637 nt of DNA from Escherichia coli (GTDB taxonomy: Bacteria; Pseudomonadota; Gammaproteobacteria; Enterobacterales; Enterobacteriaceae), in assembly GCF_003334385.1 (NCBI RefSeq), contig NZ_QOWN01000158.1. One strand, 5' to 3'. The number at the start of each line of letters is the position of its first letter. Position 1 is the first letter of the stretch. Under the pieces are notes generated by a model. That model was given only the letters and a program-made list of their open reading frames with translations. It was not told the DNA's origin and made no database searches. The position numbers and the translations under genes were made by a program. Below, piece after piece: positions 1-637 of the stretch.

Positions 1-88
1 TTGCGTTTTGTAGGCTGTCAGGGATACTGTCCCACGAATGGCCACCTGTAAGCTCCAGATGACCATTTTTGTTATTCTCCACAACGAG

Positions 89-637
89 TTAGTTCTTCTT
101 TTCGGATCCGGCACTTCTGGGGGGGAAATCCAGCGATGGCTGGATTATGTCGTCAATTAAAAATGCGGCGAGTAGATTAGCAAATATCCACGCTTTCGCG
201 AGTTCAGGTTCCTTTGCACGCAAAGCATCCAGGTGCAGCAAACTTTTGAGCCGCTTAAAAGCCAGTTCAATTTGCCATCGCAGACGGTAACAATCAGCCA
301 CTTGCTCTGCTGAATATTCATCTTCCGGTAATGATGTTAGCAATAGCACATGGCCCGCTGCTTCCAGCGTTTCCGCCTGAACTACTCGTCCTTTTCGACG
401 ATTCTCGCTGAGCAGTCGGGTTTTACTGATTAATGCTTTTTCGGGAGGAAGTGATACGGCAATGAGACGTGCCGGAAAGGGAGCTCCGGCTTTTTTATTA
501 CCTGAATTGCCTATCATTACAGTGGTTTCACCGTTCTTACCGCAATCCAGCCCGCGCAGAAAACCCATCATGTCAAAGCGCATTCCTTCTGCAGTTAACC
601 AGCGCAATCCTCGCCAGTGAACCCGGACGATATAATC
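89..637 (-). CDS. insL: IS4-family DDE transposase, IS186-type, C-terminal part only (5' end of gene lies beyond the right window edge)
   Basis: Minus-strand ORF with TAA stop at 89..91. The reading frame stays open from 607 to the window edge at 637 (upstream codons read DYIVRVHWRG, no stop). The track start at 605..607 is TTG, not ATG, so it is an internal Leu codon. The translation contains YRLRWQIELAFKRLK, an exact fit to the IS4-family Y-(2)-R-(3)-E-(6)-K signature that carries the catalytic Glu of the DDE triad. The whole visible peptide matches what I recall of the E. coli IS186 transposase InsL; this is recall, not a database search. Confidence 0.88.
   Translation of the reverse strand, partial: DYIVRVHWRGLRWLTAEGMRFDMMGFLRGLDCGKNGETTVMIGNSGNKKAGAPFPARLIAVSLPPEKALISKTRLLSENRRKGRVVQAETLEAAGHVLLLTSLPEDEYSAEQVADCYRLRWQIELAFKRLKSLLHLDALRAKEPELAKAWIFANLLAAFLIDDIIQPSLDFPPRSAGSEKKN
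245..289 (-). other. YREK catalytic signature of IS4-family transposase (Tyr 287..289, Arg 278..280, Glu 266..268, Lys 245..247)
   Basis: Direct translation of the minus strand: tac cgt ctg cga tgg caa att gaa ctg gct ttt aag cgg ctc aaa gives Y R L R W Q I E L A F K R L K, with spacing Y-2-R-3-E-6-K. Confidence 0.85.

Follow-up and report, generated by a model that had tools for sequence, protein, structure and literature searches.

Organization of the Window

The window, i.e., the whole 637-nucleotide stretch of Escherichia coli DNA analysed here, carries on its minus strand the 3' part of a single transposase gene, insL of the insertion sequence IS186/IS421, followed by an untranslated segment of the same element (Table 1). 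The insL reading frame is open from position 637 down to position 92, where it is closed by TAA, and it continues past the right edge of the window; the initial annotation, made from the letters alone, had already described 182 codons without frameshift or premature stop, and we read them in the same way. The N-terminal 188 codons (with D115 and D170), the promoter, the start codon, and both inverted repeats lie outside the window. In the ER1709 locus L001, where window position 1 corresponds to position 1501 and the end of the element (CATAAGCGC...) to position 1418, the element extends for another 83 nt past window position 1; the ends of the present copy would accordingly fall 83 nt beyond position 1 on one side and about 620 nt beyond position 637 on the other.

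Table 1. Features of the 637-nt window (position 1 is its first letter).
Feature	Coordinates	Strand	Basis or remark
Last 182 codons of insL, the transposase gene of IS186/IS421 (InsL residues 189-370)	92..637	-	Translation is an exact substring of MG1655 InsL1
insL stop codon TAA	89..91 (91-89)	-	Translation
YREK signature YRLRWQIELAFKRLK (InsL Y305, R308, E312, K319)	245..289	-	Region C1, DDE catalytic domain
Glu312 codon GAA, third DDE triad residue	266..268	-	Place in YREK; IS4-family definition (PMC2266710); Tn5 equivalent E326 (PMC2566895)
Pfam DDE_Tnp_1 match	158..403	-	Fragment residues 79-160, model positions 125-200 of 200
IS186 sequence 3' of insL, untranslated, lying between the stop codon and the terminal inverted repeat	1..88	-	Repeat itself outside the window
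C7 run on the coding strand (G7 on +), codons F359-P360-P361-R362, C-terminal tail	119..125	-	Sequence

The catalytic signature was reported initially with all of its residues at canonical spacing and no strand named; we place it on the minus strand, where positions 289-245 read TAC CGT CTG CGA TGG CAA ATT GAA CTG GCT TTT AAG CGG CTC AAA and are translated as YRLRWQIELAFKRLK (Y R L R W Q I E L A F K R L K). Tyr is encoded at 289-287, Arg is encoded at 280-278, and the codons for Glu and Lys occupy 268-266 and 247-245, which reproduces without deviation the Y-(2)-R-(3)-E-(6)-K spacing that defines the IS4-family signature. Each of the other five frames contains 6 to 15 stop codons and none contains the YREK pattern. 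When the residues of the 182-aa fragment were shuffled, the pattern came up in 219 of 200,000 shuffles (0.11%); shuffling the bases of the window 2,000 times never produced an open stretch of at least 182 codons (mean 86, maximum 180). The YREK pattern and the open frame are thus unlikely to occur by chance.

Several other features of the window deserve a mention. The C7/G7 run in the C-terminal tail is a homopolymer and, as such, prone to slippage or sequencing error; a slip in it would alter only the last 10 or so residues of InsL, in a tail that is predicted to be disordered (residues 355-370, pLDDT below 50 in the model described below). P361, encoded within this run, is invariant in our homologue alignment. 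A scan of both strands against Rfam gave no match at E values up to 1, and a promoter scan of the window found no promoter-like site, positions 1-88 included. Two terminator-like sites were counted, for 0.6 ± 0.8 expected from shuffles. One of them, a hairpin at 471-490 on the plus strand, antisense to insL (GCCGGA...TCCGGC followed by TTTTTTATTA), was dropped as a terminator, as its folding energy does not stand out from that of shuffled sequences (z = -1.19; 21 of 200 did as well); it probably arises simply from the codons of insL at this place (NKKAGAPFPA). The plus-strand ORFs antisense to insL, of 52 aa at most, were treated as chance.

Identification as IS186

Over its full 637 nt, the window is 100% identical to IS186A, IS186B, and IS186C of E. 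coli K-12 MG1655, in line with the name IS186 given to it at the outset; its reverse complement is an exact substring of all three, so that the visible part corresponds, with zero differences, to positions 623-1259 of the 1,345-nt annotated element. The 182 encoded residues are likewise exactly residues 189-370 of InsL (WP_001300563.1/NP_414557.1). We are, thus, close to certain that the window is an internal segment of IS186 (alias IS421; IS4 family; about 1.34 kb) with insL on the minus strand, comprising the C-terminal half of InsL and then 88 nt of 3' untranslated sequence. Judged by its letters, this is the known IS186/IS421 itself, base for base, and nothing new. IS186 is a long-characterised, active E. 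coli insertion sequence, best known for its insertions at the lon promoter hot spot and beside hok toxin loci.

The element is widespread. A megablast search of the window against complete RefSeq E. coli genomes returned 8,482 places in 2,190 of 5,426 genomes, with a median of 3 and a maximum of 22 copies per carrier genome; the best place was at least 99% identical in 2,698 of the 2,751 E. coli records, and RefSeq labels the matching places as IS4-like element IS421 / IS186B family transposase. Plasmids carry it too: the 637 nt occur with 100% identity on 943 of them, mostly conjugative, from Escherichia (699), Salmonella (91), Klebsiella (71), Shigella (45), and others.

Domain Content, Family, and Conservation

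A Pfam scan for DDE_Tnp_1 (PF01609), suggested initially as the way to check the catalytic motif, places the motif within the domain, in the fragment and in full InsL alike. On the fragment, the match covers residues 79-160 (E 7.1e-15), with the motif inside, at residues 117-131; on full-length InsL, it extends over residues 107-348 (E 3.6e-26). The best NCBIfam match is NF033592 (transpos_IS4_1, IS4 family transposase), which full-length InsL reaches with 133.3 bits for a cut-off of 115; the fragment alone obtains 91.5 bits, below this cut-off, as expected of half a protein. Weak NCBIfam matches over the C1 region were also seen for IS1634 (41 bits) and IS701 (25-27 bits), far under their cut-offs of 100-250 bits.

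The IS4 family is defined by a single-frame DDE transposase with a YREK motif in region C1, the Glu of which belongs to the DDE triad (De Palmenaer et al. 2008, PMC2266710). The transposase gene is in a single frame here as well, with 182 uninterrupted codons in the window and one 370-codon ORF in the reference copies. As for the triad, E312 is encoded in the window, and D115 and D170 are seen in window-identical full-length copies and in homologues. Neither the main text of PMC2266710 nor the supplements examined mention IS186; like the IS231, ISH8, IS4Sa, IS4, IS10, and ISPepr1 subgroups described there, it combines a single-frame DDE transposase with a complete YREK and target duplications of about 10 bp, and its ends start with 5'-CAT, as do those of the IS231 and ISH8 subgroups (PMC2266710). 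IS701, ISH3, and IS1634, which were split off from IS4, have related transposases of the DDE_Tnp_1 type; one of Y, R, or K is missing in them and their duplications are 4-6 bp long (PMC2266710), whereas IS186 has the full motif and duplications of 10-11 bp.

Searching a protein database with InsL yielded 2,866 relatives (E ≤ 1e-5), many of which, at 41-71% identity, belong to alpha-proteobacteria such as Pseudaminobacter, Labrenzia, Agrobacterium, Mesorhizobium, and Sinorhizobium. None of the YREK residues (Y305, R308, E312, and K319) varies across an alignment of 32 homologues (41-88% identity to InsL), and the same holds for D115 and D170, the other two residues of the DDE triad, encoded outside the window.

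Predicted Fold and Comparison with Tn5 Transposase

An AlphaFold2 model of InsL, built on the 32-homologue alignment, has a mean pLDDT of 81.7 and places the YREK motif on a long predicted helix (residues 298-322). A Foldseek search of this model against the PDB gave five significant matches, all of them Tn5 transposase (1muh, 3ecp, 4dm0, 1mm8, and 1mus), with E values from 1.9e-8 (1muh) to 6.5e-7 and a probability of 1.00; the next-ranked match has an E value of 0.22. PDB searches by sequence only (HMMER), with InsL or with the 32-sequence profile, returned nothing significant (1wty, E 0.27 and 0.67; 3cmn, E 0.68), so that it is the Pfam profile, the motif, and the predicted fold that connect InsL to Tn5 transposase. 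By its predicted fold, InsL belongs to the Tn5/Tn10-type DDE transposases, with the RNase H fold and, in the Tn5 type, an insertion domain.

The YREK residues have the same spacing in both proteins, Y319, R322, E326, and K333 in Tn5 (IS50) and Y305, R308, E312, and K319 in InsL, and lie on a helix in both. Structural alignment of the InsL model with Tn5 transposase (1MUH/1MUS/3ECP/4DM0) gives 14-15% identity and a TM-score of about 0.4, and InsL is shorter, with 370 aa against 477. The elements also differ in their ends and duplications, 5'-CT and 8-9 bp for IS50 elements (PMC2266710) versus 5'-CA and 10-11 bp for IS186.

Copies, Ends, and Target Sites of IS186

We compared 12 window-identical full-length loci, namely the 3 of MG1655 and 9 from other genomes, including one Salmonella plasmid. 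The three MG1655 copies are mutually identical over 1,345 nt; 8 further copies, from unrelated strains and the Salmonella plasmid, are identical across a 1,339-nt core and encode the same intact 370-aa protein (WP_001300563.1), which makes 11 of the 12 copies base-for-base identical over the core. At all 12 loci, the element is bounded by CATAAGCGC...GCGCTTATG, with both terminal inverted repeats (CATAAGCGCTAACTTAAGGGTTG) present, and is flanked by direct repeats of 10-11 bp within GGGG...CCCC targets; these identical copies thus show the duplications of about 10 bp that characterise the IS4 family.

The 12 loci represent eight distinct sites: between dnaJ and hokC, between hokE and entD, between nupC and pdeA, inside the group II intron gene ltrA, between hyfA and hyfB, beside cas3, beside another hok, and on an IncHI2 Salmonella plasmid. 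The annotated IS186A/B/C of MG1655 (L002 588-1932, L003 1508-2852, and L004 774-2118) are 1,345 nt long, i.e., a CATAAG...CTTATG core of 1,339 nt plus three bases on each side. At each of the eight sites, the core is adjoined by CC on its left and by GG on its right and, because of this, neither the exact boundary of the element nor the length of the duplication (10-11 bp or longer) can be read unambiguously from the sequence.

A toxin gene of the hok/gef family (hokC/mokC, hokE, two other chromosomal hok, or a plasmid hok) is found within about 80-200 nt of IS186 at five of the eight distinct sites, the insertion being in every case in a GGGG...CCCC palindrome; of these associations, those with hokC and hokE are already known in the literature. 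A consensus for IS186 targets was reportedly defined by saiSree et al. in 2001. The target pattern given here is drawn from the 12 loci and from the citations contained in PMC3861542 and PMC3903273, the latter stating, with reference to Chong et al. 1985, that IS186 favours GC-rich sequences. Downstream of hokC/gef, IS186 is thought to disrupt the fold-back inhibition element (PMC3562002).

IS186 also disrupts, and is disrupted by, other mobile elements. In NZ_CP025842.1 (239063-241499), IS186 sits inside the group II intron reverse-transcriptase/maturase gene ltrA and is flanked by two partial pseudogene pieces, one mobile element disrupting another. The reverse situation is found in seven genomes (e.g., NZ_CP119441.1, 2022789-2024202), where the match to the window is split into two pieces spread over 1,414 nt; the surplus of 777 nt agrees with an IS1A (768 nt, and 9 bp of duplication) within the IS186 transposase gene, and these copies would, thus, have been killed by another IS.

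Completeness and Activity of the Copy

The IS186 family is clearly active, as identical copies are found at different sites with target duplications and as insertions have been recorded in the laboratory: during E. coli laboratory evolution, IS186 was seen to enter the lon promoter anew, creating a 12-bp duplication, and a precise excision was also described (PMC3861542). Copy identity had been proposed initially as a measure of recent activity, and it speaks for such activity here, with three identical copies in MG1655 and eight more, in other genomes and on a plasmid, that are identical at different sites with intact target duplications. The initial annotation also held that the copy looks functional rather than decayed within the window. 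This view stands, as the window is identical to the active IS186 consensus; the sequence, judged within the window, supports a potentially active copy. Whether the copy is complete is a question about the rest of the element, and we consider it very probable that it is, on the strength of the 11 intact copies among the 12 examined.

The main alternative is that the window derives from a dead IS186, with a pristine C-terminal half and a lesion elsewhere, such as a frameshift, a truncation, an inserted IS, or a lost inverted repeat. Such copies do exist. The ER1709 copy, between entD and hokE, is identical to the window and is nonetheless annotated as frameshifted in RefSeq; compared with the CCCCGGGGGG of MG1655 it reads CCCCGGGGG, having lost 1 nt from a G6 run of the N-terminal half (element position about 215; L001 about 2540-2552). 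IS1-interrupted copies occur in at least seven genomes, and the protein database contains many partial proteins, though most of these were probably cut by contig ends. Against these cases stand the intact ones: 11 of the 12 window-identical copies are complete, identical over 1,339 nt, and provided with both ends and target duplications, and the intact 370-aa product is encoded by 8 of the 9 copies sampled from other genomes. Moreover, the 5' half of IS186 is found at 8,602 places in the complete E. coli genomes and the window at 8,482, and this near-equality of the two halves means that most copies are full length. The deletion in ER1709 itself sits in a homopolymer and could be either a real mutation or an assembly error. 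We regard a dead copy as unlikely.

Far less probable is a copy that departs from canonical IS186 outside the window, for example in the N-terminal DNA-binding region or in the ends, with a change in target choice, or whose 3' half has been kept in a truncated element with a host role; nothing in the window points to an altered N-terminal region or ends, or to a host role of a truncated element. A domesticated, immobile IS186-derived transposase with a host function is more improbable still. This reading was raised since the element ends fall outside the window, and no observation favours it; against it, the nucleotide sequence is identical to that of mobile copies carried at many sites by chromosomes and by conjugative plasmids from several genera, and the identity to the element extends, at 100%, over the 88 untranslated nucleotides, contrary to what domestication would lead one to expect. 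Finally, a chance YREK-like match in a non-transposase sequence, for which one can invoke only the shortness of a pattern of four fixed residues, has virtually no probability left and is refuted by its rarity in residue shuffles, the DDE_Tnp_1 match over the stretch, the 100% identity to annotated IS186 transposase genes, the exact InsL substring, and the invariance of all four residues in the 32 homologues, distant ones included.

A Proposed Tn5-Like Model for IS186 Transposition

What InsL may do can be sketched from Tn5. In Tn5 transposase, the catalytic E326 is separated from R322 by one turn of the helix; Y319 and R322, which are required for hairpin resolution and strand transfer, coordinate, jointly with R210, a phosphate of the non-transferred strand, and the Lys (K333) touches the transferred strand (PMC2566895). 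By analogy, the catalytic divalent metal ions would be bound by Glu312 (in the window) and by Asp115 and Asp170 (outside it); Tyr305 and Arg308 of InsL may hold the phosphate of the non-transferred strand, as Y319 and R322 do, and Lys319 may contact the transferred strand, as K333 does, so that Y305, R308, and K319 would position the DNA end.

IS186 would then move by cut-and-paste, with a nick at the 3' end, formation of a hairpin at the element end, and resolution of this hairpin; its insertion by staggered strand transfer into targets with a G run and a C run would leave the 10-11 bp duplication. We found no IS186 biochemistry in the literature searched, and both the roles of individual residues and the hairpin pathway are inferred here by analogy, from Tn5 and from the IS4 family.

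Significance for the Host Genome

The identification of IS186 provides a firm annotation of the window and has little importance beyond that. It does carry a practical warning, as the region is repetitive (a median of 3 and up to 22 copies per carrier genome) and has, therefore, no unique placement. For the organism, it means that the host genome probably also has a mobile, mutagenic element.
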